From positions 1 to 57,639 of IMG/VR virus record IMGVR_UViG_3300008110_000066: a stretch of DNA of 57,639 nt; one strand, given 5' to 3'. This DNA is from a virus (taxonomy: Duplodnaviria; Caudoviricetes). The notes under the pieces are model-generated. The model was not told the origin of the DNA and did no database searches. It saw nothing but the letters and a program-made list of their open reading frames with translations. The translations under genes were made by a program, and so were the position numbers. Positions 7,275 through 32,018 of this stretch are shown in pieces; within the stretch, counting starts at the first letter, position 1, and each line of letters begins with the position of its first letter.

Positions 7275-7349
7275 CGATTTATTTTTATAAAAACAAGTTT
7301 ATCTTTTCTAAAATAGGAAATAAACTATTTATGAAAAAACGAATTTTTA

Positions 7350-10300
7350 ATGCCCAAATCATATAGAATTAGGACTGAAGTTGGTGTTGATAAATATATC
7401 AATGTGAACCTCGAACAAGATTGGGAATCTTTAGAGATACTTTCTTTGAAGATTTTAGCCGATGACTTATACACACGTTTCTGTGCCGATTACGGTGTTG
7501 TTGTTGGTAGAGTTTTTGTAAATAATGGTTTTGGTTTACCAAAGGCGAAAGTATCGGTATTTATTCCTTTGGAAGATGCGGATGAATTAGACCCTGTGAT
7601 ATCAGAACTATATCCATACAAAACAATTACAGACACTAACGAGGCTGGTTATAGATATAATTTATTACCAAAACTACCATCATACAATGGACATCAATCG
7701 ACAGGATCATTTCCTAACGTTGGTGACGTTTTAATGGATGAATCATATATTGAGGTTTATGACAAGTACTATAGATATACGGTTACCACAAATGAGAGTG
7801 GTGACTTTATGATTTTTGGAGTACCAATCGGAAATCAAACAATAGTAATGGACGTTGACCTATCGGATATTGGATGTTTTTCACTATCCCCACAAGACTT
7901 GATACAACAAGGATTGGCAACAGAAACTCAAGTTAATGGATCCACTTTTAGGACATCAACTAATTTGAGAGAACTACCTCAAATTAAAAATTTAGTTTTT
8001 GATGTTGACGTTAGACCTTTTTGGGGGGACGCCGAATTATGTCAAGTTGGAATAACAAGAGTTGATTTCGATTTAACTAAACAGGCAAATATCAATATAC
8101 AACCAACATCAATTTTTATGGGGTCGATTATATCGACAACTGATGATGATGCTCTTAAAGTAAGTTGTAAACCAAAAAACAACACAGGAAATCTTTGTGA
8201 ATTGGTTTCAGGTCCAGGTGAAATTAAATCTGTTAGACAGACTATAAACACAGATTCGAACGGACTTCCTTTACTTGAGGTTTATGATATTGAAGAAGAA
8301 GGAAAAGTTATAGATGGTGATGGGACATTTTTAATGAATGTACCAATGAATTTGGATTATGTTTTTACAAATGAATTTGGACAACAAGTTTTATCGGATG
8401 ATCCATCGAAAGGAATCCCAACAAAAGGAAAATATCGATTCAAATTTAAATGGCAAAATGACCAAGGACTACAAGGTAATTTTCAAAGGGCAGATTTTTT
8501 AGTACCTAATGTCAAAGAATATGGTTGGACTGGTAATTCAGACCCTTTTAATCAAAATCCAACTACCTTTACTTACCCTCAAATTCCAATTGGGTCAACT
8601 ACAGGAACAACATACACTTCACCCTCAAGTGTTGGATTGTCAAACCCTGTAACAATTAACGTAGAATCTTATTCTATCTATATTAACGGTGTTGTTTATA
8701 CAGGAACTTTAAATTCAATCACATTAAATCAAAATGATACTTTGTTGATTGTTGCAACACCTGTAGACCCTACTCAAGCACAAGATATTAGTTTTACTGA
8801 ATATCCATTACAATTATTTAAGTTGTTAAAATCATATGCTTTCAGCACTGATTGGGATGACTACGTTAATCCTCAAGAAGCTATAGATTGTGAAGATACT
8901 TTCTACGAATTTAAATACAACAAAGTATACACTACCGCAATGTTTTTGGATAGATATAAAAACGGCGTAGGTAGGGCAAAACATTTAGGTATTAAAGAAA
9001 TTGATAATAGAACATGTAAATCTACTGTTAACACATTTCCTGTAAATGATATTATTAGAAACTTTGATTTTATATTTTTTGTGTTCAACATACTCATTAA
9101 CATTTTAACATTCCCAATCTTAGTTTTATTATTTGTAGCGCATTTAATTGCACTACTTTGGCCAATTCTTAAATACCTATTATTATTCTTAGGTCCTTTC
9201 ATAATTGCTATGGGAGTACAGGCTGGTGTAGATTTGGCTTATTATATTGCTGAAACTTTTGCATTTACGCCACTTGGTGGACCTGTAGTTAATTTTGGTA
9301 CTTATCTACAAATTATTGCAAAAGGAATATATGCGTTGGCATTAGTCGCTGCCGGTGTCGTATTCACAATTTTTTATACAAAATTCTTTAAAGAAAGTTT
9401 AGATAATGGAAGAGTTTCTAACTTTCCAAGAATCGGTTTACCAATGATTGCATACCCTGATTGTACAAGCTGTGATTGTCAATGTGGTAATGCGACAATT
9501 GAGGATGGTTTTGATGAGAATGATATACAACAAGAAATTCAAGACGCTCAGGATGATTTAGGTGATTCATCATCAGGTTTTGGTTATGATATAACTTTTG
9601 CAGAACCAAATACGGTTTTAGCACCTTTGAGTTCACCAATAACTTATGAATTCGATCACCCAAATTTACAGGTAAATCAAGATGGTGATGATCCTTATGA
9701 TTGTGGTGGTGCTAGTCCTATATTTAAATCATTACAAACTTTAATAGGTAATGACGATATAGTTCCTGATTTAGCTGTCAGAGCAGTCCTTGATTTCAAA
9801 AGACTTGCGTCAGGTTATGATGTTCTGTCATCAACGGATCCGAACGCTTATTATACTGAGTTTTATTTATTACATGCCCCACAACCATTTTTATTTTCTG
9901 GAAAAGATAGTGCGGGTAGCGATGAAAGATTCTTTGGTTACCCAACATCAGTAACTTTACCTCAAAAATTGAACGACTTCAACACACGAGACAAATATTT
10001 CTATTCAAACACGTCAAGTGCTGCGGGTACAGGTGTGAATAGAATCAAAACTACCGTAAATCCCGGTTTAAGTTCCAATTTCTTCGAAGATCAAGTTTTG
10101 GTTGTGTTAATGAATGCAGGTACCGCATCACAAATTGGTGTCGGTGGGGTTTGTACGTTTCAGGACCCAAAATATACTGACTCACAATCTAGTAATAGAT
10201 TGATCAACTTAACAGGTGCAACTACAAATCAGTTCAATAATACCGCAATCACTGGTACTACTCTTACAGGACAAACTTCAGTAACCATAAATTACGCAAA

Positions 10301-12938
10301 CCCAAGTAACCCAAACGCCTCTATTCCTGTTACAGTACCATTTATACAACCATCTATAAGCCAACTACCTGTCGCTGGTAATCCGACCGTAGAACAATCT
10401 TATTTACAATACGCCACAGACGTAGAATATTTTCAGTTAATAACTGGTATTACAGTTTCTGATTTTGAAACTAACTCGGGTTATAATGGAGGTAATTCAG
10501 GTTATTTTCCAAGCTCATATTTATTTCACAACATAACATATAGAATATCATCATGTGGGGCTCCTTATAGTTTATCTCAACAAGGTTCTATTTCAGATGT
10601 TTTAAGATTTGCAACTAATTATCAAAATTATGAAGTTTGTATATTTGTTAGGGGGGTAGATCCATTCTCAGCACCACAAACTATTAAGTACGACTTGTCT
10701 AAAATTTTTGGTAATACAAATTATGGTACGGTTACAGTTGAAGGTAGTTATTATTTAAATCAACCAATACAAGCTCTACCAACTGGTTTGAAACCAACAA
10801 GTCATAATACAACAACAAACTCAAATACAACTTTATATTTTCCTTCATTTACGTTTACACCCGACCAAACTCAATTTACCGCATTTACCTCAAACCTACC
10901 TTATTTCTATTCAAGTATAGATGATACTATTTCCTCTTCTTACATTCCAGCTCCTATTTGGTCAACAAATAGTACACAAACCTCGGGTGGTTTAACAACA
11001 CTATCTTCTGTAAGATCTGTACCTCTGAGTCAAACTTCTTATATGGTGGGTGGATCATATTTAGCTTGGTGGGATACAACATTAAGTAATCAACCGTTTA
11101 TGACTACAGATAACAACCCCCCTTGTAATCAAGATTGTCAAAAAACACAATATTTTAATACAAATAATGGATCTTTCGTGACAGCACCAAACAATGGTAA
11201 CCTAACTGCTCTATATTCACCGGCTTACTATAGATACATTGGGTCAGGATCATTATCAGGACCTATTCAATTCAATTTGGCAAACTACAATCGAATAGTT
11301 ATGAGGAGTGATAGATTACCTACATCCACTGGCATACAAAATGGTGCTAATTTAAGAACAGGATACCTTTTACACCAAAATGATAATTTTTCAATTTATA
11401 CATTAACAGGTGTTTTGGAACCACCAACAATAAACACAGGTGGGGACTTACCTAATGGTGATGGTCTTGATAGTGACTCAATAACATCAGGATTAACAAG
11501 TTCTTTAACATGTGAGGGCATGGTTCCTTTGGAATGTTACTCAGGATCAGGTTCAAATGTTGGCATAATACCCTCAAATCAATGCTCGATTCCAACTAAC
11601 AGAATGATAAATGGTTGTTATTGTTTATTAAACAGGCGTTATGTTAAAGAGTATGGAGCGGATGTCAGACTATTTTTAGAGTGGAAAGTAAGGTTTACAA
11701 TGAACTTTGCCGCTTGTAGAGGAGTATTTGCACAAGTTTTCCAAAACAATTGGATCAATGGAGTTCTTTATATGTATAGTTTCAATAAAAGAACAACATT
11801 CGGATTAGACCCAACAAACCCTACCTACAACTACTGCGACGATGTTATTATATTCAATGATTTAACTAATAATTTCTTTTATAGATCATCACCATGGAAT
11901 GAACAACAACAAAAATTTATTGGTAAACAATCCCCCGCTCCTCCTAATATACCCGCACAATTTTTAGTATTTCCTGGTTTAGGTTATAATGTTAGACAAA
12001 TACAATTCCCAACTACAATTGTTGATATGGGACCGAGAGATAGTTTTATCAACGAAATATGTTGTTCTGGTGTTGACGGATTTGGTTCATATTTTGCTGA
12101 TCAATTAAAGGCAACTTCTTATCAAGACAATTCTGACATTATACAACTTGGATTCTTATCAAGAATATTGAATGAGGGTGTAAGACAAAGAATTATACCA
12201 ATAGGACAAGGTCAAAACAATACTGAAGGTAAAGGAATTGAACAATTTTTTAATAGCGATAGAGGTGGTTATAGAATTGACGGAGATTGGGCTCAAATGT
12301 TATCGATAAATTCCGAATGGAAAGTATTACCTTTTATTACTGAAAACGTGCCGAGTAATAGTTATATCTATTTTGGTGACAATTTGAATGGTCTATCTTC
12401 TGGTGTACCTTCGGATGAAATAAAACCTATCTTAGGTTTATTTTTTACCGCAAATACTCCCGAAATTAGATATCGAAAAATAATGTCACCTGGAATTGAA
12501 ACTTATAACTTCAATCCGTTAATTGAAGAGAAATTTGGATATGGTAAATCACAAGTTGTTCCTCACTATAAATGGTGGATAAAAACACCTACAACCTACG
12601 TTGGAACACCAAACATTTTTGGATCTGAAGATAATAATTGGTACACACAAACATATTCTTCAGGTTTCTTTCAGAAAAAATATCAAGATTTAGATTTTAC
12701 AACTTTGGGTGAGAAGTATATGACAACACAAACAAAATATGGATACATAGCTAGCTTTAATTTAACTGGAGGTACAATGCCAATTACACCATTGACTAAT
12801 ATACTACAAGGAGACCCTAGCACAAATTCAAGTAATGCTGTTGTTGTAGGTGCACCATACCACTTCTATTTTGGTTTGAATAATGGAAAAACTGCGATAG
12901 ATAGATTTTATAAACTTTATGTAGCAACTCAAGATTAA
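7350..12938 (+). CDS. Very large (1862 aa) baseplate/tail-associated protein with an N-terminal prealbumin-like beta-sandwich and an internal multi-helix hydrophobic block
   Basis: GVVVGRV...AKVSVF and TTNESGDFMIFGVPIG motifs; hydrophobic block at about aa 570-680; Cys- and Thr-rich; TATTTAT at 7326. Confidence 0.6.
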   Translation: MPKSYRIRTEVGVDKYINVNLEQDWESLEILSLKILADDLYTRFCADYGVVVGRVFVNNGFGLPKAKVSVFIPLEDADELDPVISELYPYKTITDTNEAGYRYNLLPKLPSYNGHQSTGSFPNVGDVLMDESYIEVYDKYYRYTVTTNESGDFMIFGVPIGNQTIVMDVDLSDIGCFSLSPQDLIQQGLATETQVNGSTFRTSTNLRELPQIKNLVFDVDVRPFWGDAELCQVGITRVDFDLTKQANINIQPTSIFMGSIISTTDDDALKVSCKPKNNTGNLCELVSGPGEIKSVRQTINTDSNGLPLLEVYDIEEEGKVIDGDGTFLMNVPMNLDYVFTNEFGQQVLSDDPSKGIPTKGKYRFKFKWQNDQGLQGNFQRADFLVPNVKEYGWTGNSDPFNQNPTTFTYPQIPIGSTTGTTYTSPSSVGLSNPVTINVESYSIYINGVVYTGTLNSITLNQNDTLLIVATPVDPTQAQDISFTEYPLQLFKLLKSYAFSTDWDDYVNPQEAIDCEDTFYEFKYNKVYTTAMFLDRYKNGVGRAKHLGIKEIDNRTCKSTVNTFPVNDIIRNFDFIFFVFNILINILTFPILVLLFVAHLIALLWPILKYLLLFLGPFIIAMGVQAGVDLAYYIAETFAFTPLGGPVVNFGTYLQIIAKGIYALALVAAGVVFTIFYTKFFKESLDNGRVSNFPRIGLPMIAYPDCTSCDCQCGNATIEDGFDENDIQQEIQDAQDDLGDSSSGFGYDITFAEPNTVLAPLSSPITYEFDHPNLQVNQDGDDPYDCGGASPIFKSLQTLIGNDDIVPDLAVRAVLDFKRLASGYDVLSSTDPNAYYTEFYLLHAPQPFLFSGKDSAGSDERFFGYPTSVTLPQKLNDFNTRDKYFYSNTSSAAGTGVNRIKTTVNPGLSSNFFEDQVLVVLMNAGTASQIGVGGVCTFQDPKYTDSQSSNRLINLTGATTNQFNNTAITGTTLTGQTSVTINYANPSNPNASIPVTVPFIQPSISQLPVAGNPTVEQSYLQYATDVEYFQLITGITVSDFETNSGYNGGNSGYFPSSYLFHNITYRISSCGAPYSLSQQGSISDVLRFATNYQNYEVCIFVRGVDPFSAPQTIKYDLSKIFGNTNYGTVTVEGSYYLNQPIQALPTGLKPTSHNTTTNSNTTLYFPSFTFTPDQTQFTAFTSNLPYFYSSIDDTISSSYIPAPIWSTNSTQTSGGLTTLSSVRSVPLSQTSYMVGGSYLAWWDTTLSNQPFMTTDNNPPCNQDCQKTQYFNTNNGSFVTAPNNGNLTALYSPAYYRYIGSGSLSGPIQFNLANYNRIVMRSDRLPTSTGIQNGANLRTGYLLHQNDNFSIYTLTGVLEPPTINTGGDLPNGDGLDSDSITSGLTSSLTCEGMVPLECYSGSGSNVGIIPSNQCSIPTNRMINGCYCLLNRRYVKEYGADVRLFLEWKVRFTMNFAACRGVFAQVFQNNWINGVLYMYSFNKRTTFGLDPTNPTYNYCDDVIIFNDLTNNFFYRSSPWNEQQQKFIGKQSPAPPNIPAQFLVFPGLGYNVRQIQFPTTIVDMGPRDSFINEICCSGVDGFGSYFADQLKATSYQDNSDIIQLGFLSRILNEGVRQRIIPIGQGQNNTEGKGIEQFFNSDRGGYRIDGDWAQMLSINSEWKVLPFITENVPSNSYIYFGDNLNGLSSGVPSDEIKPILGLFFTANTPEIRYRKIMSPGIETYNFNPLIEEKFGYGKSQVVPHYKWWIKTPTTYVGTPNIFGSEDNNWYTQTYSSGFFQKKYQDLDFTTLGEKYMTTQTKYGYIASFNLTGGTMPITPLTNILQGDPSTNSSNAVVVGAPYHFYFGLNNGKTAIDRFYKLYVATQD

Positions 12939-12939
12939 G

Positions 12940-14739
12940 ATGACAGTTGATCCATCATATAGAATAATACTATCCACAGAAAGATTTAAATCAGCTCCGA
13001 GAACTGATCAAGCAATCAATGTGCCGTTCGCTCAATCAATGAAAGAAATTATTGAGTTTGACCGATCTATTGATTTGAATTTAGTTGATGTATTTGATCA
13101 AGAAAGACAAACATGTACAATTTTCAGACCTGTAACTAAGTTTACAATTCTTTTTGAAAACGCCTTTACTGGATCAACAGTTTATGAACCTTTTAGGGAT
13201 AATTTGTATTACACTAACCCAATCAATAATGCGTCTTCATACTACCCTTCAGGTAATGTACCATCTGTACCACCATTACCTACAGATCAAACTATTCCTT
13301 GGGAAGGGTTTCCACAATATCCTGAATTTGATTTCATAAGAACTGATAAAGATGTTGTTGGATACACTTATCCACCAAATAACCATTTGAATTTTAAAAA
13401 CGTTAGTGCCTCAACTTATAATTGGTCTCATTATATTAGTTATGCTTATGGTAATGTTTATAACAAAACTCTTTTTACGGTTGAACCTGACAGTAATATA
13501 AATTGGACTTGGGTTGCATCAGACGGAATTCCTTTTTACATTGTTGAAGGTAGCGATAAATTACTAACTAATATAACATTCAAATGCCCCGTTGAACATG
13601 GTTTGACAGTTGGAGAATTTGTTTATATGTCAATTAACTACAATGGTAATCAGATGTTTCAGGTCTCAAGTTTAGGAGATCCTGCTTATGGATCAAATCT
13701 TTACATTTTTAACTTAAGAAATGTTGGTTATACAGGTAGTACTTTTGTTACCAACACCCAAGGAACATTTAAAAGAGTTATAAACGCTGCTAATTCTGCT
13801 GATACAATAAGTGAATATTACATTAGAAAACATAAAATAATGACTACACCTGATTGTACAGTATTATCTAACGCAGGATTTGAGAGGAACATCTATGGGG
13901 ACAAAACAAAATGTGAAATAAAATCTTTAACACCCAATCAGAAACAAAGAACATCAGTTAAAGAAGGATCAAGATCTTACACTTTAGCGTTCAATTGCGA
14001 TATTGATATTGAAGGATTGAAAGACAACCAAGGCAGACCATTGACAGAATTATTTTTTACCTCAATTTGGAGAGGATATTTTGGTTGGACAAGAAATTTG
14101 AAACAAGGTTGGTACTTCAACACCTATTTAGAAAATAAAAAACCTCAAACATGGTGGGACAACAGCAATGTTAATTCAAACGTTACAATACCACAATATT
14201 CTTACAACTCATTATTGAATAAAGGTCCTTTTTTTTATAATTCATTTTTAACCTCAGGTGATACTATTGACGGTGATTTTTGTGAATGGAATGACTACAA
14301 TCAATTTGAGAGAGTAATTTCAATTTACCAACATAAAATAAAATATAATGAAAATTGGTTTAGGTTAGACAACCCATTACCAACATCTAATCAACCTGGT
14401 TATTTTTACAGACCACATAACCCGATTCAAATAGGTGCATTTTCTGAATATATTGAAGAAGGGAGTTCAACAAACGTTGTCGGAATACCTGACTATGCTT
14501 ACTACTCAACATTATCGGCTCTATTTAGGTGGAGAGATAAATACCCTTATGGTTATGTTGATACAGACGGTGTTGGTGTTGATTTTCCATATTTAAATAA
14601 TGCTCACTATCCTTTTATAGATACTATTTTTAGAATTACACCTGAAGATTATAATATCCCAAGTGATTATGCATCATTAGGATCGGTTCCTGCGAACATA
14701 ACTACAATATCTGACCCTGTTGCCGATGAATGCGAGTAA
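12940..14739 (+). CDS. Putative virion structural (baseplate/tail) protein
   Basis: 599 aa ORF coupled to the upstream gene, aromatic/Asn/Thr-rich, within the structural cluster. Confidence 0.55.
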   Translation: MTVDPSYRIILSTERFKSAPRTDQAINVPFAQSMKEIIEFDRSIDLNLVDVFDQERQTCTIFRPVTKFTILFENAFTGSTVYEPFRDNLYYTNPINNASSYYPSGNVPSVPPLPTDQTIPWEGFPQYPEFDFIRTDKDVVGYTYPPNNHLNFKNVSASTYNWSHYISYAYGNVYNKTLFTVEPDSNINWTWVASDGIPFYIVEGSDKLLTNITFKCPVEHGLTVGEFVYMSINYNGNQMFQVSSLGDPAYGSNLYIFNLRNVGYTGSTFVTNTQGTFKRVINAANSADTISEYYIRKHKIMTTPDCTVLSNAGFERNIYGDKTKCEIKSLTPNQKQRTSVKEGSRSYTLAFNCDIDIEGLKDNQGRPLTELFFTSIWRGYFGWTRNLKQGWYFNTYLENKKPQTWWDNSNVNSNVTIPQYSYNSLLNKGPFFYNSFLTSGDTIDGDFCEWNDYNQFERVISIYQHKIKYNENWFRLDNPLPTSNQPGYFYRPHNPIQIGAFSEYIEEGSSTNVVGIPDYAYYSTLSALFRWRDKYPYGYVDTDGVGVDFPYLNNAHYPFIDTIFRITPEDYNIPSDYASLGSVPANITTISDPVADECE

Positions 14740-15535
14740 GATTAAAATATTAAAAACAGATCTTGATCAATTTGTAAATGTCCCTGTGAACATGCAGTGG
14801 GATTTTTTAGGTAGAGATGACAGTATTTCGGAATATGAAACAGATGTTCTTAGAAGAGTTATTGGTTTACCTATTGATTTTGAAATTGCAAAATTTGATC
14901 ATAACGTATTTCCAAATATGGATTCGGCAATCAACTACGAATTTTATTTTTATGATGATTTACAACCAATAACCGCAAATACAATTCCTCTAACTGCATG
15001 GACGGTTTCATATTTAAATAATGGATTTAGTGCTGAGGAAGTCTATTATTACGCAAAACCGTTTACTAAATCATTCTTCAAGCTTGACTTGTATGATACT
15101 ACCGAAGAAAGAACACAACAAATATATTTGTCCATAATATTACCTGTACAACAAGGACAAACTCAAACAGTAAGTTTATCACCAATTACTCCACCGGTTG
15201 AAATTAAAAAACCAAAAATGAACTTAGATTATATTGGTGATAAAGAAGGATTTGCAATTTATTGGTTAAGATATAGAGATTTTATCGATATAGATACTTT
15301 CTTCATGACCGCCAAATTTTTTGATGCAAGATTAGGAGTGTTCAAACAAATGACAAATACGGTACAAACCTCAATAACTCCAAATAAATTTAATTTTAAT
15401 AATGCGGATTATTTCTACTATAGAGTAGATTTAAATTATAATGACAAAACATACGAAGTGTTTTCAATACCAACAAATCAAAGAATTGGGGATACAGTAA
15501 CACCGATAAAGTTTTTTGAATATGTGAACCCATAA
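14726..15535 (+). CDS. Putative virion structural protein
   Basis: ORF overlapping both neighbours; ATG at 14726 preferred over TTG at 14720. Confidence 0.5.
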   Translation: MNASKIKILKTDLDQFVNVPVNMQWDFLGRDDSISEYETDVLRRVIGLPIDFEIAKFDHNVFPNMDSAINYEFYFYDDLQPITANTIPLTAWTVSYLNNGFSAEEVYYYAKPFTKSFFKLDLYDTTEERTQQIYLSIILPVQQGQTQTVSLSPITPPVEIKKPKMNLDYIGDKEGFAIYWLRYRDFIDIDTFFMTAKFFDARLGVFKQMTNTVQTSITPNKFNFNNADYFYYRVDLNYNDKTYEVFSIPTNQRIGDTVTPIKFFEYVNP

Positions 15536-16710: not shown

Positions 16711-16739
16711 CTATTTATTAAAAAAAAGAAAAAAACAAA

Positions 16740-22821: not shown

Positions 22822-22822
22822 A

Positions 22823-23122
22823 ATGCCAAATCAAGTTGTTATATTATCTGCAACTGGCGTTACATCCCCATTCAGTGGTACTGCTTGTGATGTGTACGGT
22901 AACAATTGTTCCTATATTGGTAGCGGCACAACATTTCCTGTACTTTTTATTCTACCATCACAATTTGACACTGCACCAGCACTACAGTTGACCTTAACTG
23001 ATTCATTGGGTTGCTCAATTTCAGAAATAATATATTGTACTGGTGGTGGAGGACCAGACAAACAATTCCAAAATTTAGAATATTTCTTCTTTATGAGTGG
23101 AGATATCTATCAATTCCAATAA
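22823..23122 (+). CDS. Small Cys-containing structural protein, paralog of 31797..32018
   Basis: MPNQVVI...SPF...ACD.....C.YI pattern shared with the minus-strand ORF. Confidence 0.6.
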   Translation: MPNQVVILSATGVTSPFSGTACDVYGNNCSYIGSGTTFPVLFILPSQFDTAPALQLTLTDSLGCSISEIIYCTGGGGPDKQFQNLEYFFFMSGDIYQFQ

Positions 23123-23142
23123 GACGATATTTATTATTTGAT

Positions 23143-24357
23143 ATGGCATTATTAACAGACCAAATTTTAGCTACAGGTGTCACCCCAAGTGATTTAATAC
23201 ACATAGTAATAACTGGTGATACCTCACAAAATCCTGCGGGTTCATCATATAAGGCACCAATAAGCCAAGTTCTTTCTTTATTTACAGGAACTACTGGTGG
23301 GAATGAAGGATATTATGGACAGTTTTATGTTAATACAAATCTCTTTGCACCTACATCAGGGACATCTAATACCATACAATTCAGTGGTACTGAATTATCA
23401 AATCAGGTAAGTTTGAACACCATGTCGTTAACCAATGACTCAATTATTTTTAATCAGTCAGGTAAATATCAAATCTATTTTAGAGGTACTTTATATAATG
23501 GGGCGTCAACTAAAGAGAGTGTAAGTGTTACATCATACCTCGGATCAAACATTGTAAGATCGGCAATAGATAATGTTGACGTTGAGGCAAATGGTGGTTA
23601 TGAGACAATAAGTTTTGAAAGTTTGGTGGATGTTGTTTCAGGAGAATCTCTATATTTTATATGGAAAACATCCAATATATTAACGGGTTTTATAAATAGT
23701 GCAGGTCTTTCGACAGGATATAGTATAAACGTTAGTGTTTTTAGTGTTGGAGATGTTTTGAGTGGTGCTTCAGGTACTAATGGAACTTCAGGAACTAGTG
23801 GTGTTAATGGGACTAGTGGTACCAATGGAACCAGTGGAACTAATGGAACTAACGGCACAAGTGGAACTAACGGCACAAGTGGAACTAACGGTAGTTCAGG
23901 TACTAGTGGTGTTAAAGCTTGGGGATCGTTTATTTCTACAGTCGATCAAACTATTGGTGTGGCGGGAACAACTTATAAAATGAGTGCGGATACAACTACA
24001 ACTAATTCGAATGTAACATTGTCAGGTGGTAGTAGATTTGTTGTTACAAATGGTGGTACGTACAACATACAGTTTTCCGCTCAAATAAACAAATCATCAG
24101 GAACTCAAGGAAGTGTTTGGATATGGTTGAGTAGAGGAGGTACACCTATTACTGCCACAAACACTGAAGTTTACTTAGGTGGATCAAGCAATGAAAGAAC
24201 AGTGGCGGCTTGGAATTGGGTTGATGAGTGTGACGCAGGTGCATATTACGAAATAGAATGGACCGCTGAACATAATAATGTGTTTTTAGATTATACCGCA
24301 TCACCAACATATGGACCGGCAGTTCCATCTTTAATTGTTACTTTGACACAAGTTTAA
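23143..24357 (+). CDS. Collagen-like fibre protein: Gly-X-Y tract between two BclA-C/C1q-like beta domains
   Basis: ATG at 23143 follows TATTTAT at 23128 (the ORF-track start 23011 is implausible); 17 G-X-Y triplets; SGKYQIYF and GGTYNIQFSAQ motifs. Confidence 0.75.
   Translation: MALLTDQILATGVTPSDLIHIVITGDTSQNPAGSSYKAPISQVLSLFTGTTGGNEGYYGQFYVNTNLFAPTSGTSNTIQFSGTELSNQVSLNTMSLTNDSIIFNQSGKYQIYFRGTLYNGASTKESVSVTSYLGSNIVRSAIDNVDVEANGGYETISFESLVDVVSGESLYFIWKTSNILTGFINSAGLSTGYSINVSVFSVGDVLSGASGTNGTSGTSGVNGTSGTNGTSGTNGTNGTSGTNGTSGTNGSSGTSGVKAWGSFISTVDQTIGVAGTTYKMSADTTTTNSNVTLSGGSRFVVTNGGTYNIQFSAQINKSSGTQGSVWIWLSRGGTPITATNTEVYLGGSSNERTVAAWNWVDECDAGAYYEIEWTAEHNNVFLDYTASPTYGPAVPSLIVTLTQV
23764..23916 (+). 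repeat. 9/18-nt coding tandem repeat encoding (GTN/GTS)n
   Basis: Units such as GGAACTAACGGCACAAGT repeated with synonymous variation. Confidence 0.9.
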
Positions 24358-24395
24358 TCAATTCACTTTTATTTAAATTGACTTAATTTTCCTTT

Positions 24396-25376
24396 ATGGA
24401 AAAAATTCTTTTTGTCTCCGCACAGCCAGATGTCCCGTACTTTATTTGGCAAATTAAAATTTATGTAAATAATTTTATTGAAAGTGGTATTGAACCTCAG
24501 CAAATACATGTCGTGTTAGGTTTAGTTAATGGTGAAAAAACTCTGTCCAAGAATGCAGAACAATTAAAAGAATTGGGTATTAACATTCATTTTTTTGTTG
24601 ATGATAGAATTAAAAAAAATTACATACCAAGTATTAAACCATATTTAATTTCTAAATGGTTACAGTCCAATAAAAGTTTTGGAAACCTTTTTTTTCTTCA
24701 CGACGCCGATATTGTGTTTAGATCACTACCAAATTTTGATAAACTACTAAATGATAACATTTCTTATTTGTCAGATACTATTGGGTATATTGGTTATGAT
24801 TATATTATGGATTGTTGTAATAGGTATGAATTAAAACACCCTAATTCACAAAAAGGACAATTGATAAATGAAATGGCTGAGGTTATTGGTATCGATATTG
24901 AAACAATTAAAATTAACCAACAGAATTCAGGTGGAGGACAGTATCTTATAAAAAATACAACACCTGAAATTTGGGATAAGATCTATAAAGACTCAACTAA
25001 ACTTTATGATCAAATGTTGGATTATCAAAAAAGATTCCCAATCAATCCAGGCCAAATACAATTTTGGACTGCAGAGATGTGGTCATTACTTTGGAATTTA
25101 TGGATGTACGGATATAATACAAAAATAACGGATGAGTTAAGTTTTTCTTGGGCTACTGATACTATTGAGATTTATGAAAAACATAGAATATTACATATGG
25201 CAGGAGTTACCGATGATTTAAAATCTACAAAATTTTATAAAGGTGATTACATTAACGTAGACCCAATTTTGAAATTAAGACAAAACCCAAATCATTTTGA
25301 TTATGTCGATAAGAATAGTTCCACAATAAAATATATTGAGAATATGAAATCATTTATTCAAAAATACAACATTTGA
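24396..25376 (+). CDS. Putative GT-A glycosyltransferase resembling peptidyl O-glycosyltransferases (HPAT/SERGT-like)
   Basis: YFIWQ, NYIPSIKP, LHDADIVF (DxD), GGGQYLI, WTAEMWS, ILHMAG motifs. Confidence 0.65.
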   Translation: MEKILFVSAQPDVPYFIWQIKIYVNNFIESGIEPQQIHVVLGLVNGEKTLSKNAEQLKELGINIHFFVDDRIKKNYIPSIKPYLISKWLQSNKSFGNLFFLHDADIVFRSLPNFDKLLNDNISYLSDTIGYIGYDYIMDCCNRYELKHPNSQKGQLINEMAEVIGIDIETIKINQQNSGGGQYLIKNTTPEIWDKIYKDSTKLYDQMLDYQKRFPINPGQIQFWTAEMWSLLWNLWMYGYNTKITDELSFSWATDTIEIYEKHRILHMAGVTDDLKSTKFYKGDYINVDPILKLRQNPNHFDYVDKNSSTIKYIENMKSFIQKYNI

Positions 25377-25391
25377 TTATTTATATAGATA

Positions 25392-27062
25392 ATGATGAAT
25401 TCAACAACTCCAACTATTAGAAGACCAAATGAATGTGATGTTATTACGATATTTCCTATGGGAGTCGAATGCTCGGTATTACAACCTTCAACCGAAAGAT
25501 CTTTTGATGGTGCAGCAACACTAATAATTACAGGAGGTACACCACCTTATACTATTTTTTGGGAAATTGGTAGTTTTGCACCGGCTTTGGCAAATATTGG
25601 TGTTGGTGAATATAGAGCGACCGTAGTAGATTATTACGGGGATTTTACCGCAAATACAACTTGTGTATTAACAGCAACTACCGAGACTTATTCGGGGGTT
25701 TGTTTTGTTCTTTCAGGAATTTTACAAAATGAATTAGTTTATATTTCATCCGAAAGTTTAGGGTTAAAAAATGGAAAACCATATTATAAAATACAATATG
25801 GTGTTGAAACTTATGGATATGTTTTTTGGGATCCAAATAATAATCAATGGATATTCTGTAATACCTTAGATTGTCAAGGTAATTATTACAATTATTTAGA
25901 TAACGGTAATTTCTTTTATCCAACTGGGAATACAGCTCCTGATAATTGGAGATTATACTCTGACTCACCATATATAATTACAGAATCAGTTTTAGGTCTT
26001 TGCTCAATACCAAAACCCGAAGTAGAACCAACGGACTTATGTGGTACTTTAATCACAGTAAATAACAAAGGAGGAGGATATTCACTTGTTGAAAATATAC
26101 AATTTGAGCCGAGTATCGACATAAACGGAGAATCTAGTTGGACTGCGATAACAAATGATTATATTATTTATTGGAATACAGGATCAACACCATCACAATG
26201 GACTCTTTCAGGATTTAGTAACGTAAATGCAAATGTTGTAAATAACGACCCCTCAAATCCACCAATTAGTAATTGGCAAGTATTCGGGGATCCTACTATA
26301 TTAAGTTTTGATGCTAACGTAGGTTTGTGTTCATCGGCTTATACCATTTCAGTTCTTTCTACAGTCAATAACGCTGGATGTGAGGCGACAGGTAGTATTA
26401 TTGCACAAGCATCGGGAGGGCAAGCACCATATCAGTATTCAATAGACGGAGGAGTTACTTATGTAAATTCACCAATATTTAACAATCTTACACCTGCGTT
26501 CTATACGGTTTATGTTAAAGATTCAAATGGAGTTGTGGGCGTTGGTCAGACAGTACAAATAACAAGTACAATACCAACTTCTTATACATTAACATTAAGT
26601 GTCAATTATTCAAACAATACATTCACTATTACATCTCCTGTATTACCAGTTGGAGTTACAATAACAGTCAATTTAAATCATTTATCAACTTTTAGTTTTT
26701 ATCCGTCTTCATTACCAAATCAACCAACCTATAATAATGTTACCACAATTAACACTGTTGGACCTATGACATTAGTTAATACATCCAATAACAGTTATCC
26801 ATTGGCAGGACCTTGTACCGCGGACTTCCCTATAACAGTTATACAACAAACGAATCAATACACAAATACTTTAAATATAGGTAGTAATCAAACAATAACA
26901 GGATCAATTACTAATAATATTATAAATAATCCAAATGGACCTTGTGAGTATGCATCTGGATATTACACTTTGACCATTTCAAATGGGGTGTTAAATAATT
27001 GTACGTGTTGTAATTTAAATTTAGTAAATACGACACCACCATCACAAAATCCTGTACAATAA
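25392..27062 (+). CDS. SprB-repeat-containing structural/fibre protein
   Basis: ITGGTPPYTIFW and ASGGQAPYQYSIDGG...FNNL....YTVYVKDSNG repeats; TATTTAT at 25378. Confidence 0.65.
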   Translation: MMNSTTPTIRRPNECDVITIFPMGVECSVLQPSTERSFDGAATLIITGGTPPYTIFWEIGSFAPALANIGVGEYRATVVDYYGDFTANTTCVLTATTETYSGVCFVLSGILQNELVYISSESLGLKNGKPYYKIQYGVETYGYVFWDPNNNQWIFCNTLDCQGNYYNYLDNGNFFYPTGNTAPDNWRLYSDSPYIITESVLGLCSIPKPEVEPTDLCGTLITVNNKGGGYSLVENIQFEPSIDINGESSWTAITNDYIIYWNTGSTPSQWTLSGFSNVNANVVNNDPSNPPISNWQVFGDPTILSFDANVGLCSSAYTISVLSTVNNAGCEATGSIIAQASGGQAPYQYSIDGGVTYVNSPIFNNLTPAFYTVYVKDSNGVVGVGQTVQITSTIPTSYTLTLSVNYSNNTFTITSPVLPVGVTITVNLNHLSTFSFYPSSLPNQPTYNNVTTINTVGPMTLVNTSNNSYPLAGPCTADFPITVIQQTNQYTNTLNIGSNQTITGSITNNIINNPNGPCEYASGYYTLTISNGVLNNCTCCNLNLVNTTPPSQNPVQ

Positions 27063-27090
27063 ATGTAACATAAGAATATTTATCTTTTAA

Positions 27091-29589
27091 ATGGCATATA
27101 TAATTAAAAACACATCGGGTTTAGTAAACACAAGAGTTACAGATACAGGAAGACAAAGATTGTCGGAAGGTAGATTTAACATTGTTTATTTCGCAGTAGG
27201 AGATAGTGAAGTATCTTATGATGAATTACCATCAACTTACAATCAATCGAATACGGTTATATTAGAACCACAATTTAACTCACAAAATAGTTCGGGGGTT
27301 CCTGAGTCAAATAGACAATATATAAAATACCCATATTTAGTTGACGAGGGTGAAACAAATATTTATGGAATTCCTTTTATGGATTCTGGAATTGAATCTG
27401 TTTATAATAGAGCCGCAATGAGAGGTTTCTTTACAGGGAACACAACCGCATCCACTATAGATTGGAAGGCTTTAGTAAACAATAGTTACGTTGTTACGGC
27501 TAACTATGTTGTAAACATGTATACACTAAATGGTACTAACGAAATTAACGTCTACTCTTTAGGTGGTAATGTACAAAATACTAATACACCACAAGTTGGT
27601 GATTTTATTACAATATATTACGATGGTAGAGGATCTACTGACACAAGCTGTAGCAATTTCCCAACGCCCACACCAAGTGCTTCTGCAGGTCAAACACCAA
27701 CACCTACACCAACACCAAGTTCTACAAATGGAAATCCTTGTGCTTCACCAACACCAACACCTACACCAACACATACCCCTTGTCTAACACCATCCAACAC
27801 ACCACAATGTCCTGTACCACCACCACCTGATTGTGTAAAAGACGTTGTAAGTTGCTTCTCAATCCTCACATATAGAATAACCGCAGTTTGTGGTGATAAA
27901 TTAACTCTTGATAGACCAACACCTGACTTTACTAACTTATCCTCAGATTGTATTGCAAGAACAATTATTTATCCACCACAGATGGTACCTTTATATGATA
28001 GTTTTACACCTGAACCACATTGGGCTCAAAGTGTAATTGATTTTGAATCGGTTTGTGACACAGATCAGTTTGATGTTAAAATATGGAACATGAATATTCC
28101 GTGGACTGAAAGTCCTGCGGGATTATCGTCAACACAATATCAAGACTATACTAAATTTGGATCAATAAATTATATAGGTCAGAAAGAATATTTTGGATAT
28201 AATTCTTCTGATGGACAAACATCAACTGATGATGTTTACTATTACAACTCGTTCGGAGAAAAAATTGTTGTTACCCCAGAAAATCAAAAAGCAATAGCGA
28301 TCATTCACTATACAAATCAAACAATCGATTTCTTCTATGGTGAAAAATTTGCATTAGAGCCATTTGATTCTAACAATGTTGATAACACCCAAGGACAAGC
28401 CAGAAACTTCAAATTGCACATGCCAACCATAATGTGGCATAAAAACCCTGAATGTTGTTTTGGTCAAACATTTTGGGTTGATCCTGCAGGATTTGAAGGT
28501 AAAAATTTATTTGAAGTTCAATATATTAAGTCAAAAATATCAGATCAAATGAATCAACCTGGTATAAGATATTATAATCTTTGGGACACTTTTGCACAAC
28601 CTAATGGATTACCAAGTAGAGTTGGTAAAGTATTTCCCGATTCAAAGTTAATTGTTATTGATGATGAAGAGTTAGTTGCAGCATTATCTTATAAATCAAA
28701 TAGAAATTGGACTTTACCGGCACCTCAAGTTTCACTGATAACCCCTAATACATGTGGAGTATCCAACTCAACAGGAGTTTTAACAGGTGGGTCAGAAACA
28801 CTTTGGATTACATACCGATTATCGAATACAAATACATTTACAAATTCACTACATAGTAATTACTATACTAGTGTTGTTGGGACCCAAAATGTTTGTAGTC
28901 CTGACACACCTCAAAATGTGGCGGTTAGATTCGGATCTGAATTTCCATGTTTGGTACAACCTGGATTCAATCCAACAACAACTACCACAACAACATTTAA
29001 CCCAACCACAACAACAACCACAATTCCTTACACGACAACAACTACAACTAGTTGTCCTGTTTGTGTTGTACCGGCTGGATTCTACGCACAACAATTCCAA
29101 GTTTTAGCGCAGAAAACTCTTATAGGAGAAAGACCAAATCCTGAACTGTGGAAATTGATTGATTTTACAAGTCAAATTAGCCAAAATTTTATCAACGGAT
29201 ATGTAACTCAAGAATCCTTAACAGCAACTACATTTATTGTTACTGCGGAAAATTATAGTTCTGCACCTTACTACAATCTTAATGATTATATTGATTTAGT
29301 TCCCAACGGCGCAACAGGTCAGCAATTGAATTTTGGTGATGAATATTATTTTTATGGTAACTTGGAAACTGACATACAAGCAACAATTTACGAAATGAAA
29401 TATAAAATAAATTTGAGTTCTAGCGAGTTTTTAGTTTCACAAAACCCAACTTGGACATTTGGAACTCAATCTTATATCTCTGAAATTGCTTTAATGGATG
29501 AAAATAAAGATATATTAGTAATGTCAAAAATGCAATCTCCCGTATTAAGACAAGGAATTCAACAATATGTTATAAAGTTAGATTTTTGA
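27091..29589 (+). CDS. Baseplate/fibre-attachment protein with split tail-collar-like termini and Pro/Thr linkers
   Basis: N-terminal VTDTGRQRL...YFAVGDSE and C-terminal ISEIALMDENKDILVMSKMQSPV; (TP)n and poly-Thr tracts. Confidence 0.6.
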   Translation: MAYIIKNTSGLVNTRVTDTGRQRLSEGRFNIVYFAVGDSEVSYDELPSTYNQSNTVILEPQFNSQNSSGVPESNRQYIKYPYLVDEGETNIYGIPFMDSGIESVYNRAAMRGFFTGNTTASTIDWKALVNNSYVVTANYVVNMYTLNGTNEINVYSLGGNVQNTNTPQVGDFITIYYDGRGSTDTSCSNFPTPTPSASAGQTPTPTPTPSSTNGNPCASPTPTPTPTHTPCLTPSNTPQCPVPPPPDCVKDVVSCFSILTYRITAVCGDKLTLDRPTPDFTNLSSDCIARTIIYPPQMVPLYDSFTPEPHWAQSVIDFESVCDTDQFDVKIWNMNIPWTESPAGLSSTQYQDYTKFGSINYIGQKEYFGYNSSDGQTSTDDVYYYNSFGEKIVVTPENQKAIAIIHYTNQTIDFFYGEKFALEPFDSNNVDNTQGQARNFKLHMPTIMWHKNPECCFGQTFWVDPAGFEGKNLFEVQYIKSKISDQMNQPGIRYYNLWDTFAQPNGLPSRVGKVFPDSKLIVIDDEELVAALSYKSNRNWTLPAPQVSLITPNTCGVSNSTGVLTGGSETLWITYRLSNTNTFTNSLHSNYYTSVVGTQNVCSPDTPQNVAVRFGSEFPCLVQPGFNPTTTTTTTFNPTTTTTTIPYTTTTTTSCPVCVVPAGFYAQQFQVLAQKTLIGERPNPELWKLIDFTSQISQNFINGYVTQESLTATTFIVTAENYSSAPYYNLNDYIDLVPNGATGQQLNFGDEYYFYGNLETDIQATIYEMKYKINLSSSEFLVSQNPTWTFGTQSYISEIALMDENKDILVMSKMQSPVLRQGIQQYVIKLDF

Positions 29590-29643
29590 CAACTATTCAG
29601 TTTCAGATCAAATTGTATATTTTAATTTAAAAGAATCTTATTT

Positions 29644-30249
29644 ATGGCAAAAAGTCTCAAAAATTCACCAAAAGTGTTAGGTCTCGATATTTCCACTAAA
29701 ACTATTGGGTGGGCATTGTTTGATATAAAAACACAAGAACTGTTAGAATTAACACATGTTTCACCAAGACCTAAGATGGAAAAGGAAGATGATGACAAAT
29801 TGAAAGAACTTCTTCTCAAATCTGAAATTTTTGCAGAAAAGTTAAGACAATATAAAGACCTTGGAATAGTCAGAATTATAATTGAAGAACCACTACTTAA
29901 TTCAAATAATATTTATACAATCCAAACATTATTAAGATTCAATAGTTTTGTATTCAAAGAAATCTATAATATATTAGGAATAGTTCCTGAATTTATCTCA
30001 ACTTACAACTCAAGAAAGTTCGCATTTCCCGAGTTAGTTCAAGAAAATGATAAGAAGAAATTTGTTTTGTTTGGTGGATTACCGAAAGACGTTGATAAAA
30101 AAATGATTATATGGGAAAAGGTTGCAAAAAGAGAACCACAAATCAAATGGTTATATACTAAAAACAACACCTTGAAGAAAGAAAACTTTGACCAAACAGA
30201 TGCTTATACATGTGCATTGGGATTCATGAAATTTAAAAGTATTTGGTAA
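29644..30249 (+). CDS. RuvC-like Holliday junction resolvase
   Basis: VLGLDISTKTIGWA, IIIEEP and DQTDAY acidic RNase H-fold motifs. Confidence 0.75.
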   Translation: MAKSLKNSPKVLGLDISTKTIGWALFDIKTQELLELTHVSPRPKMEKEDDDKLKELLLKSEIFAEKLRQYKDLGIVRIIIEEPLLNSNNIYTIQTLLRFNSFVFKEIYNILGIVPEFISTYNSRKFAFPELVQENDKKKFVLFGGLPKDVDKKMIIWEKVAKREPQIKWLYTKNNTLKKENFDQTDAYTCALGFMKFKSIW

Positions 30250-30277
30250 TAATATCCTTTTAAATACCGATAATTGG

Positions 30278-30309
30278 AAATATCGTCTTTATAGACGATA
30301 TTTTTTTTT
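30278..30309. terminator. Terminator between convergent genes, possibly bidirectional
   Basis: AAATATCGTCT-ttat-AGACGATATTT hairpin followed by a long T run. Confidence 0.8.
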
Positions 30310-31795
30310 AAACACAAACTGTGTTTAAGAAGTCTACAACGATGTTTGAAGAAGTTGAGGTTGGAGTTGTTGTTGAACAAATTATTATTGCTGAATAAGA
30401 AGTTACAGAACTACTTTCACTACCAGTACAATTATTGTAATTAAATTTAACTATTGAAGGGCTATTATTAGTAACTCTGTATTGATATAAAACACAAGGA
30501 CTAACACTTGGAGTTGGAGTTGGTGTATTTGTTGGAGTTGGAGTTGGGGTTTGAGACAAATTAGGTATACATTGTAAACAAGCTCCATCGGTTTGAGAAC
30601 CAATTTCAGTGGTTAGTGTTACAGAATCAACACCACTTATATTTTCAAAAAGACCATCAAACAGAACACACAATCCTTGACCATTTATTACCGCATTGTA
30701 GACATAACCTTGTTTTGGTGATGTTTCTCCTGAAACCAAAACTAAATCTGAAGTGTAATAATGTACACCTGTAAAACAATCAGTAAACCTTTTACTGTTT
30801 GCACATTGTAAAATTTCAGAAATTGTACTAAATGTGACATCACCACTAAACGAACAAGGTCTTGTCACATCTGGTGATGGTGACGGTGTTGGAGTATTTG
30901 TTGGTGTTGGTGTTGGTGTATAACCACTTGCGGTGACCAACATAGAAATACCACCACAAATCGCGGAAGATGTTGGGGTTGGAGTTGGTGTGGGGGTTGG
31001 GGTATTTGTTGGCGTTAAACTTGGGGATGGTGTTACTAAACAATCAAATATCGCGGAAAAATCAAAATCAACACACGGATTTGTGGTTGTTGTCGTAGTT
31101 ACGCAGTATCCAGTATACGCAACTGTATCATCAAAATCAGGACAAGTAGACGTACTACCATATGGGCCAAATTGATCACATGGATCACCTAAATTTTGTG
31201 CCAAACACCATCTTGTTTCACCTGTTGAGTAAAACATAAAATATCCTGTTGTTTGACCTGTATAATAAAATTGACCACCGTAAACACTGGCTTGCTGATA
31301 TGTATCATCGTATGTGGAGTCATTTTCAACACAAAAAAATTGAGTACATGTACATGCTGAAATTCCAATCAGTTGACCAGTAAAATCTGTTTCATATACA
31401 TCAATACCATCTGAATAGTATGCTAAAGTTGTTGAAATAGTACATCCTGAATCTGAAAATAAAAATTCACCAATAGTTAAAGAGTCACCATAAATTGGGT
31501 TTATTAAAGGTGCTCTACACGAGGAATCTGGATCTGCTGTTGCGGAAAATAATCCCAAAAAGTTACAAGAACAACCTGATATTCCTAATTTAATGGCTCC
31601 TGTACCACCAGTTTCAAAAATATTATTACCATTACTTAAGAAATAATTATCCAAGGTGACCGTACAACCTGAGTCTTGATAAACTAAATTACCAGGGTAT
31701 AAAGAAGTACCATACAATGTGGTTGTTGTTGCTGATGTACACAACAATGGGTTATTAACACTATCTATCGCAAACGAACCTAAACTAACGCACAT
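30308..31795 (-). CDS. Cys-rich, Pro/Thr-repeat fibre or decoration protein
   Basis: Duplicated DSGCT...Y.S.G...ET..TG units, three (TP)n tracts and many Cys. Confidence 0.6.
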   Translation of the reverse strand: MCVSLGSFAIDSVNNPLLCTSATTTTLYGTSLYPGNLVYQDSGCTVTLDNYFLSNGNNIFETGGTGAIKLGISGCSCNFLGLFSATADPDSSCRAPLINPIYGDSLTIGEFLFSDSGCTISTTLAYYSDGIDVYETDFTGQLIGISACTCTQFFCVENDSTYDDTYQQASVYGGQFYYTGQTTGYFMFYSTGETRWCLAQNLGDPCDQFGPYGSTSTCPDFDDTVAYTGYCVTTTTTTNPCVDFDFSAIFDCLVTPSPSLTPTNTPTPTPTPTPTSSAICGGISMLVTASGYTPTPTPTNTPTPSPSPDVTRPCSFSGDVTFSTISEILQCANSKRFTDCFTGVHYYTSDLVLVSGETSPKQGYVYNAVINGQGLCVLFDGLFENISGVDSVTLTTEIGSQTDGACLQCIPNLSQTPTPTPTNTPTPTPSVSPCVLYQYRVTNNSPSIVKFNYNNCTGSESSSVTSYSAIIICSTTTPTSTSSNIVVDFLNTVCV

Positions 31796-31796
31796 A

Positions 31797-32018
31797 TTAT
31801 AAACTTAAATTTTCTTTTACTATACAATTATTACTATCTACAACTTTAACACCACAAGATGCCATACCTTCTAAAATAAATGGTAAATCAAAAGAATATG
31901 GAACCTCAGATGTTCCAATGGTATCAACGTAAATACAAGTTGTATATCCTGTATCACAGGCATAAACATCAAATGGGGATAATCCACTTAAACTTGAGAT
32001 TGTTATTTGTGTTGGCAT
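31797..32018 (-). CDS. Small Cys-containing structural protein, paralog of 22823..23122
   Basis: MPTQITI...SPFDVYACD...C.Y; TATTTAT on the minus strand at 32026-32032. Confidence 0.6.
   Translation of the reverse strand: MPTQITISSLSGLSPFDVYACDTGYTTCIYVDTIGTSEVPYSFDLPFILEGMASCGVKVVDSNNCIVKENLSL

Follow-up and report, generated by a model that had tools for sequence, protein, structure and literature searches.

A four-residue motif, [S/T]-[G/A]-x-T, recurs throughout the baseplate and fiber module of an uncultured tailed phage (Duplodnaviria; Caudoviricetes) far more often than local composition predicts. The DNA analyzed (hereafter the window) was the entire IMG/VR record IMGVR_UViG_3300008110_000066, which is 57,639 bp long and has a completeness estimate of 20%. 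In the structural proteins encoded there, the motif is enriched, specific in its residues, conserved among orthologs, and set in a defined sequence context, a hydrophobic residue commonly preceding it. What the motif does in three dimensions would follow from this sequence grammar: we consider it fairly probable that hydrophobic-[S/T]-[G/A]-x-T serves as a structural turn or rung element that was amplified in one lineage of jumbo phages. An earlier, sequence-only reading of the window had taken the motif for a phage-specific glycosylation sequon, recognized by a glycosyltransferase (GT) encoded inside the module and serving to coat the whole tail with sugar. Of that proposal, selection on the motif and the GT in the module stood up to analysis, the link between the two did not, and virion glycosylation as such is plausible in this lineage.

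Enrichment, specificity, and conservation of the motif

The structural set comprised the 12 structural open reading frames (ORFs) within 7350-31795, and expected counts were derived from block shuffles preserving local composition (blocks of 12, 20, and 40 aa; 1000 shuffles each). The set contained 82 copies of [ST][GA]xT, whereas 25.2, 24.4, and 23.7 were expected with the three block sizes, respectively (z 12.1-13.0). Thus, the recurrence noticed by eye persisted against composition-preserving shuffles (82 versus ~24, z ~12); all of the tetrapeptides listed in the sequence-only reading are present, and the ~25 copies it claimed for the 729-aa protein were counted as 27. Six proteins (1862, 599, 391, 729, 556, and 495 aa) were enriched singly (p ≤ 0.006), the 271-aa and 99-aa ORFs were marginal (p 0.013-0.046 over the three block sizes), and four proteins (995 aa, 832 aa, the collagen-like ORF, and 301 aa) were not enriched (individual counts in Table 1).

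The signal depended on the exact arrangement of the residues. Within the structural set, it disappeared when Ser was allowed at position 4 instead of Thr ([ST][GA]xS, 20 versus 19.0 expected), and [ST][GA]..T was not in excess (22 versus 24.6). The reversed motif T.[GA][ST] occurred 36 times (24.5 expected); altogether, reversed and shifted versions came near 1.3-1.5x, and the pairwise terms each reached only ~1.2-1.3x. Composition alone was ruled out by the block shuffles, and post-hoc picking of the motif by an unbiased scan of 21,837 gapped triplets, in which TG.T (38 versus 9.5; z 9.3) ranked second by z and SA.T was also in excess (15 versus 3.4 expected). The sole triplet ranked above TG.T had 3 counts, and TG.T was the strongest well-populated signal. 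Codon usage at the motif positions was that of the background, so a DNA-level cause was rejected and selection acts on the protein. Two established sequons were likewise rejected as explanations, as neither the O-glycosylation motif of Bacteroidota, D[ST][AILVMT] (27 versus 27.0, ratio 1.00), nor N-x-[ST] (ratio 0.94) was enriched in the structural set. The near absence of the motif from enzymes, also part of the sequence-only reading, was borne out: no copy was found in the 34 ORFs outside 5400-32000, where 5.2 were expected, and none in the 326-aa GT or the RuvC-like ORF.

Extending the motif toward its N-terminal side strengthened the signal. With a hydrophobic residue at -1, 50 copies were observed and 7.3 expected (6.7-6.9x, z 15.7), compared with 32 and 17.3, respectively, when this residue was lacking; F, I, and Y were over-represented at -3. 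Asp or Asn cannot stand in for the hydroxyl residue at position 1 ([DN][GA]xT, 9 versus 13.4), and equivalence to Asx/ST-turns was therefore rejected. Ser in place of Gly or Ala gave no excess either (20 versus 19.2).

Conservation was assessed with 30-45 orthologs per family (43-86% identity), which came from 80 related loci. The orthologs retain the class of the motif while S/T and G/A interchange, which is the behavior expected of a motif under selection, as the sequence-only reading had supposed. Position 330 of the 391-aa protein, for example, reads SAIT, TGLT, SALT, TAIT, or TGIT in 30/30 orthologs, and position 1177 of the 1862-aa protein TAFT, SGFT, SAFT, or TGFT in 43/45. Six of the 10 sites of the latter protein were retained in 38-45 of 45 orthologs and position 1380 in 26; in the 599-aa protein, each of the five sites was retained in 29-35 of 35. 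A minority of sites was not conserved, namely, positions 965, 1700, and 1806 of the 1862-aa protein (0, 4, and 1 of 45 orthologs) and position 92 of the 271-aa protein, the other site of which is conserved. Thr at position 4 was the most conserved element: its conservation was 0.80, 0.97, and 0.88 in three proteins, compared with 0.49, 0.49, and 0.67 for the other Thr residues of the same proteins (0.97 versus 0.49 in the 599-aa protein), and x was variable (0.47-0.60).

Common descent does not account for these sites at the levels tested, which agrees with the earlier description of the proteins as unrelated. An all-versus-all BLASTP comparison of 13 window ORFs returned one marginal match and no shared domains or internal repeats, and hhalign among five ortholog-family profiles gave probabilities of at most 1.1%; shared domains or repeats were thus rejected as the cause. 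The AF2 model of the 391-aa protein (31 orthologs) was poor (pLDDT 39), only residues ~105-190 being modeled; the single site within this core, T110-T113, was placed at a strand end and loop, with pLDDT 52-59.

Relatives, controls, and the probable structural role of the motif

A complete relative, G001 (296,330 bp, estimated 100% complete), shares a baseplate J protein of 78% identity with the window. Its genome is circularly permuted relative to the window, the fiber module corresponding to ~284 kb through 13 kb of G001. The motif is enriched there as well (266 versus 118.2; hydrophobic version, 171 versus 37.5), with z ≥ 3 in 16 of 330 ORFs. One half of the genome (14-160 kb) is mildly depleted (18 versus 28.1), and the other holds 248 copies versus 90.1 expected. 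Enrichment did not extend to all virion proteins, as the sheath-like ORF had 5 copies versus 2.0 expected and a 1697-aa ORF 2 versus 2.7, which speaks against a sugar coat over the whole tail as it had been envisaged.

In the motif-rich proteins, the copies are frequently arrayed. The 729-aa window protein contains overlapping arrays, for example, TGFTVTGLTGGT and TGSTVTGLTAGT. A 467-aa ORF of G001 has 23 motifs at spacings of 3-17 aa, save four gaps of 33-40 aa, together with an internal duplication; a 139-aa ORF has seven copies; and a 435-aa ORF carries L-T-G-I-T once per ~46-aa repeat (spacings 46, 46, 43, and 41 aa), alternating with L-T-G-N-L. Strings of the type TGDTYVTGGT are common to four different proteins, and SGGTV[ST]GxT occurs in three. 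A Pfam scan of nine motif-rich G001 proteins yielded just one match (Lcl_C), the leucine-rich repeat (LRR) models not matching the 435-aa ORF, and a PDB sequence search with the 467-aa protein found no match. An 899-aa ORF of G001 (214075-216774) has a 21-aa tandem repeat that contains TGLSGLT at least six times; locally, [ST][GA]xS is in excess in this ORF (17 versus 3.1), unlike everywhere else.

Control sequences were passed through the same pipeline as the window. Five were from unrelated phages that encode a homolog of the 326-aa GT, and their [ST][GA]xT ratios were 1.06 (Chryseobacterium phage MA9V-3), 1.19 (Enterococcus phage phiFL2A), 1.53 (Clostridium phage phiCTP1), 0.49 (Staphylococcus phage DH5), and 1.29 (Enterococcus phage 1_EfsPF36), none of them significant, so that motif and GT did not co-occur there. 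The 484-kb uncultured phage LR756508 gave 0.95 and Flavobacterium phage immuto 1.47. Pooled, the seven sets contained 115 copies versus 95.1 expected (1.21x) and 42 versus 26.2 of the hydrophobic version (1.60x). The fold-matched control, 120 bacterial SprB and type IX secretion system (T9SS) adhesins (238,536 aa), contained 1755 versus 1329.9 (1.32x; hydrophobic version, 1.88x), a signal dominated by the SprB consensus [ST]GGT[AP]P. From the 1.21x and 1.32x of these controls it follows that a general, weak preference for the motif exists in β-rich surface proteins, which the window lineage amplifies three- to fourfold. In the fiber module of immuto (locus L086, 19500-41812), [ST][GA]xS was depleted (16 versus 28.9) and [ST][GA]xT mildly increased (34 versus 25.2), which hints at a general preference for Thr over Ser at position 4 in fiber proteins.

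The same controls dispose of the simplest explanation, namely, that the counts arise from S/T/G-rich composition or from the SprB-repeat fold alone. The motif-rich window proteins are indeed rich in S, T, and G, SprB-type contexts (GL[ST][GA]GTY or TGGTxPY) account for ~10 of the 82 copies, and bona fide SprB proteins do show their 1.32x. Nevertheless, shuffles in blocks as short as 12 aa still predict only ~25 copies, no SprB protein exceeded 2.51x, and the median motif density of the adhesins was 0.67 per 100 aa, compared with 3.7 and 2.8 in the window. In addition, the most conserved sites reside in proteins without an SprB match (599, 391, and 1862 aa). Shuffles, specificity tests, the triplet scan, and the SprB control together refute this explanation, which we regard as extremely improbable.

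A structural role is favored because the motif is coupled to a hydrophobic residue, occurs in tandem arrays and solenoid-like repeats, has a baseline preference in unrelated β-rich proteins, has Thr (+3) as its most conserved residue, and does not track the GT family. The hydrophobic residues at -1 and -3 would mark the end of a β-strand, the hydroxyl and the small residue would form a tight turn or rung junction, and the β-branched Thr at position 4 would start the next strand. By analogy, overlapping arrays and repeats look like the hallmarks of strand-turn rungs in repetitive β-fibers. If the fiber and baseplate-distal proteins of this lineage, for which hosts among the Flavobacteriia are predicted, were built largely from such short strand-turn units, the motif could have been amplified in many proteins of a common architectural style but without detectable sequence homology.

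Several observations weigh against this structural role. Enrichment in the lineage (3.3x; hydrophobic version, 6.7-6.9x) far exceeds the pooled maximum of the controls (1.6-1.9x). Position 1 admits only S or T, despite the fact that simple Asx/ST-turns often swap D/N with S/T. Non-structural genes are mildly depleted (0 versus 5.2 in the window; 18 versus 28.1 between 14 and 160 kb of G001), and the lineage encodes many GTs. Finally, the motif recurs in families without profile-level homology, which a trans-acting factor would explain neatly. Such a factor could be a fiber-assembly chaperone, a kinase, or a methyltransferase that recognizes the motif; lineage-specificity and non-homology of the motif proteins would be accounted for, the phage encodes its own DnaJ, and methylation of tail proteins is reported for a mycobacteriophage in PMC13445384. 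However, no candidate factor was identified, and the density and tandem arrangement of the motif fit a structural element better, which leaves recognition by a factor of this kind decidedly improbable.

The module glycosyltransferase and its likely acceptors

The 326-aa ORF of the module is assigned to phrog_4417, the function of which is unassigned in PHROG. At E ≤ 1 no Pfam family was matched, no PDB sequence match was found, and the ORF did not fall into a curated GT family; an HPAT profile matched 1 of 55 family members (E 0.09), and a lead to HPAT from the Atlas covers only 10% of one cluster. The family (844 clusters at 50% identity) is separate and mostly viral. Its fold is nonetheless predicted with high scores (AF2 with 55 sequences; pLDDT 96.9, pTM 0.94), and nearly all of the 44 PDB matches listed by Foldseek were GT-A glycosyltransferases, the exception being a GlcNAc-1-phosphotransferase. 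The catalytic domain of UGGT, WbbM, GTA/GTB, glycogenin, XXYLT1, and LgtC were matched with probability 1.00 and E values of 7e-8 to 5e-6 (best E 6.8e-8), at TM 0.39-0.47 normalized by the query; most named structural matches in BFVD were also annotated as glycosyltransferases. A DxD follows a hydrophobic strand (...FFLHDADIVF...), with D105 invariant and D103 conserved in at least 90% of 55 sequences (28-96% identity). Among 10 longer homologs scanned, five carry further GT domains as fusions (PF11397 in three, GT6 in one, and Glyco_transf_7C/GT7 in one), and one of the PF11397 fusions also has a protein O-fucosyltransferase (O-FucT) and a galactose-binding domain; of the other five, four had no match and one had a methyltransferase domain. 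Because of the modeled fold, the conserved DxD, and the fusions, the ORF is assigned as a genuine GT-A fold glycosyltransferase (GT8/GT24/GT6-like fold) of predicted activity, in agreement with the sequence-only reading, which had seen a GT inside the module.

Thr-rich tracts, rather than the motif, accompany this GT in other phages. In phiFL2A and phiCTP1, the GT homolog lies between the major tail/tube gene and the tail chaperone genes, and the tube proteins have poly-Thr tails at the C-terminus but no [ST][GA]xT. In DH5 and 1_EfsPF36, the ORF immediately preceding the GT homolog likewise ends in a poly-Thr tail and has no motif, and capsid-like ORFs of these two phages carry poly-Thr as well. 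In MA9V-3, a T/S run of 21 residues occurs in the ORF adjoining the GT, and two more, of 41 and 18 residues, in the ORF after it. No such tracts were present in two control loci without a GT homolog. The homologs are located at 6995-7741 (L083), 7004-7912 (L084), 5995-6879 (L108), 6004-6912 (L109), and 13714-14619 (L082) of their loci. In the window, two (PT)n linkers and three poly-T runs occur in the 832-aa protein, whose Thr tracts, like those of the 495-aa protein, lie within 6.5 kb of the GT; in G001, four proteins with T-run tracts flank the GT homolog (69% identity). Thus, a GT gene next to virion genes with S/T-rich tracts was found in the window, G001, and five other phages. As GT homologs adjoin poly-Thr virion genes in other phages, the 326-aa GT would, by analogy, most likely act on virion proteins at their poly-Thr and (PT)n tracts; a further candidate acceptor is the collagen-like (G-T-N/S)n tract encoded directly upstream of the GT. 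A literature search at the level of titles and abstracts turned up no description of the motif and, mycobacteriophages aside, nothing that connects a phage GT with poly-Thr tails.

These results bear directly on the proposal of an O-glycosylation sequon, in which the 326-aa GT-A enzyme or another GT of the lineage would recognize the motif and sugar-coat the fiber proteins at defined β-turn sites. Consistent with it are the lineage-specific excess across non-homologous virion proteins, the strictly hydroxyl position 1 combined with the interchange of S/T and G/A among orthologs, the mild depletion in non-structural genes, and the supply of enzymes: besides the GT-A enzyme inside the module, GT2 domains above the Pfam cut-off are encoded by five further ORFs of G001 (134034-136228 and 190380-200912; two ORFs with double domains), the second cluster lying between fiber-gene regions, and a weak GT1-like match was also found. 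Yet the five phages with a GT homolog lack motif enrichment and have poly-Thr tracts in virion genes traveling with the GT instead (beside it in four of the five), which separates the GT from the motif. The motif is moreover tied to a preceding hydrophobic strand, forms overlapping arrays every 3-6 residues, lies inside solenoid-like repeats, and has a weak baseline preference in unrelated β-rich proteins, and the sheath-like protein (5 versus 2.0) and several other large proteins of G001 are not enriched. A sequon is therefore considered unlikely. A combination of both ideas, in which one of at least seven GT ORFs of the lineage would O-glycosylate Thr/Ser at the strand-turn junctions of fibers, the coat would extend over at least 16 fiber proteins, and cytoplasmic enzymes would be selected to avoid the motif, appears rather doubtful as well. 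Autotransporter heptosyltransferases read a strand-loop-strand motif, and such a structural-context sequon would resemble their mode of recognition.

Genome context, significance, and known systems

The features of the window are listed in Table 1. The call of the collagen-like ORF (448 aa) includes 44 codons at its beginning that look spurious (Trp/Arg-rich and overlapping the 99-aa ORF), and its true start is probably Met45 at 23143; the tract itself is (G-T-[N/S])n and not a Pro-rich Gly-X-Y repeat. The 495-aa ORF is the module's only minus-strand gene and has many CxxC-like spacings, its modules being split by the (TP)n linkers; no family was matched. An Atlas search with the 301-aa ORF gave no usable match.

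Table 1. Features of the window, with observed and expected counts of [ST][GA]xT.
Feature	Position	Strand	Motifs, observed versus expected	Remarks
Baseplate and fiber module	4968 to 31795			
1862-aa fiber/baseplate-distal protein	7350..12938	+	10 versus 3.9	No Pfam/PHROG family
599-aa structural protein	12940..14739	+	5 versus 0.8	
271-aa protein	14720..15535	+	2 versus 0.2	
391-aa protein	15535..16710	+	11 versus 1.6	Weak PKD-like core
301-aa protein	16740..17645	+	0	No family
995-aa protein	17645..20632	+	2 versus 1.5	
729-aa protein	20632..22821	+	27 versus 5.9	Sub-threshold SprB/Ig-like matches
99-aa ORF	22823..23122	+	2 versus 0.3	
Collagen-like tail fiber ORF	23011..24357	+	4 versus 3.9	(G-T-[N/S])n tract, aa 252-300
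326-aa GT-A fold glycosyltransferase (predicted)	24396..25376	+	0	phrog_4417, no Pfam family; DxD D103/D105
556-aa SprB-repeat protein	25392..27062	+	7 versus 1.5	
832-aa protein	27091..29589	+	3 versus 2.2	(PT)n linkers, poly-Thr runs
201-aa RuvC-like resolvase	29644..30249	+	0	
495-aa Cys-rich protein	30308..31795	-	9 versus 2.3	Four (TP)n linkers, T6 run
Sigma-70 factor	40234-41034			Full; regions 1.2, 2, 4
DnaJ	49362-50282			Complete; zinc-finger and C-terminal domains both present
460-aa protein	51904-53286			Leucine-rich repeats at C-terminus

The record amounts to ~20% of a jumbo phage of roughly 290 kb. Its genes encode ribonucleotide reductase, a DnaB-like helicase, primase, an SbcCD-like nuclease, a sigma-70 factor, DnaJ, a Dam-type methyltransferase, and an amidase. 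IMG/VR contains a great many relatives of its baseplate J protein (597 confirmed stretches, with contigs of up to 296 kb). Flavobacterium phage immuto and a Microcystis phage are the closest relatives in culture (24-27% identity), alongside the 484-kb uncultured phage; megablast of the fiber module against GenBank phages gave no match. In its DnaJ, sigma-70 factor, and predicted Flavobacteriia-type features, the window phage would resemble the "moraphages", which according to PMC12619734 are large phages of aquatic habitats that encode DnaK/DnaJ homologs and four core orthogroups of putative glycosyltransferases and for which hosts among the Flavobacteriia are predicted.

If the motif is structural, it provides a compact sequence signature for the fiber architecture of abundant, uncultured, large aquatic phages, the fiber proteins of which have no Pfam, PHROG, or PDB relatives; it could help to recognize and model them. 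Should the sequon proposal prove correct, the motif would be the first phage-specific sequon for glycosylation to be defined. The by-product of the analysis may matter more than the motif itself. It is a link, absent from the titles and abstracts searched, of the widespread phrog_4417 GT-A family to poly-Thr-tailed virion proteins across phages of Bacillota and Bacteroidota: members of the family adjoin tail-tube or capsid genes with poly-Thr tails in the window lineage and in the phages of Enterococcus, Staphylococcus, Clostridium, and Chryseobacterium. On this basis, O-glycosylation of virions, to date demonstrated in mycobacteriophages, is predicted to be common among phages of both phyla, which bears on the immunogenicity and stability of therapy phages.

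Several known systems invite comparison. The general O-glycosylation sequon of Bacteroidota, D-[S/T]-[A/I/L/V/M/T], is a three-residue, S/T-centered motif on surface proteins. It resembles the motif in being S/T-centered and belonging to the predicted host phylum, but it is not enriched in the window, and this glycosylation takes place in the periplasm, which is not where phage proteins fold. The SprB repeat (PF13573) of Bacteroidota gliding/T9SS adhesins is shared to the extent that repeats of the 556-aa protein exceed the cut-off, those of the 729-aa protein remain sub-threshold, and the SprB consensus contains [ST]GGT[AP]P; it differs in its slight enrichment (1.32x) and in that most motif sites of the window lie outside any SprB match. 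Closer in grammar is the rung turn element of LRR and β-solenoid proteins, L-[S/T]-G-x-[I/L], which has the same order of residues (hydrophobic, hydroxyl, small, and β-branched or hydrophobic) and recalls the L-T-G-I-T present in each repeat of the 435-aa ORF of G001, despite the fact that Pfam LRR models do not match this ORF and most window sites lie outside detectable tandem repeats.

As to the enzyme, it shares its fold and the DxD after a hydrophobic strand with the retaining GT-A enzymes of GT8/GT24/GT6 (UGGT, glycogenin, LgtC, XXYLT1, the blood-group enzymes GTA/GTB, and WbbM) but only 7-14% sequence identity, and the PF01501 profile did not match the G001 genome. In mycobacteriophages, capsid and tail tube subunits of the virion are reported to carry glycans at their C-termini (Freeman et al. 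2023, as cited in PMC12619734). No Mycobacterium phage was among 77 tblastn records for the 326-aa GT, which therefore probably belongs to a GT family other than that of the mycobacteriophage enzymes. Compared with the system as cited there, the Thr tracts of the window differ in that they are internal fiber linkers and not C-terminal tails, and in that their glycosylation is a prediction. What the two have in common is a phage GT in a structural module and, in the Enterococcus, Clostridium, and Staphylococcus siphophages, GT homologs directly after a tail-tube-like gene with a poly-Thr tail, together with capsid-like proteins that end in poly-Thr.

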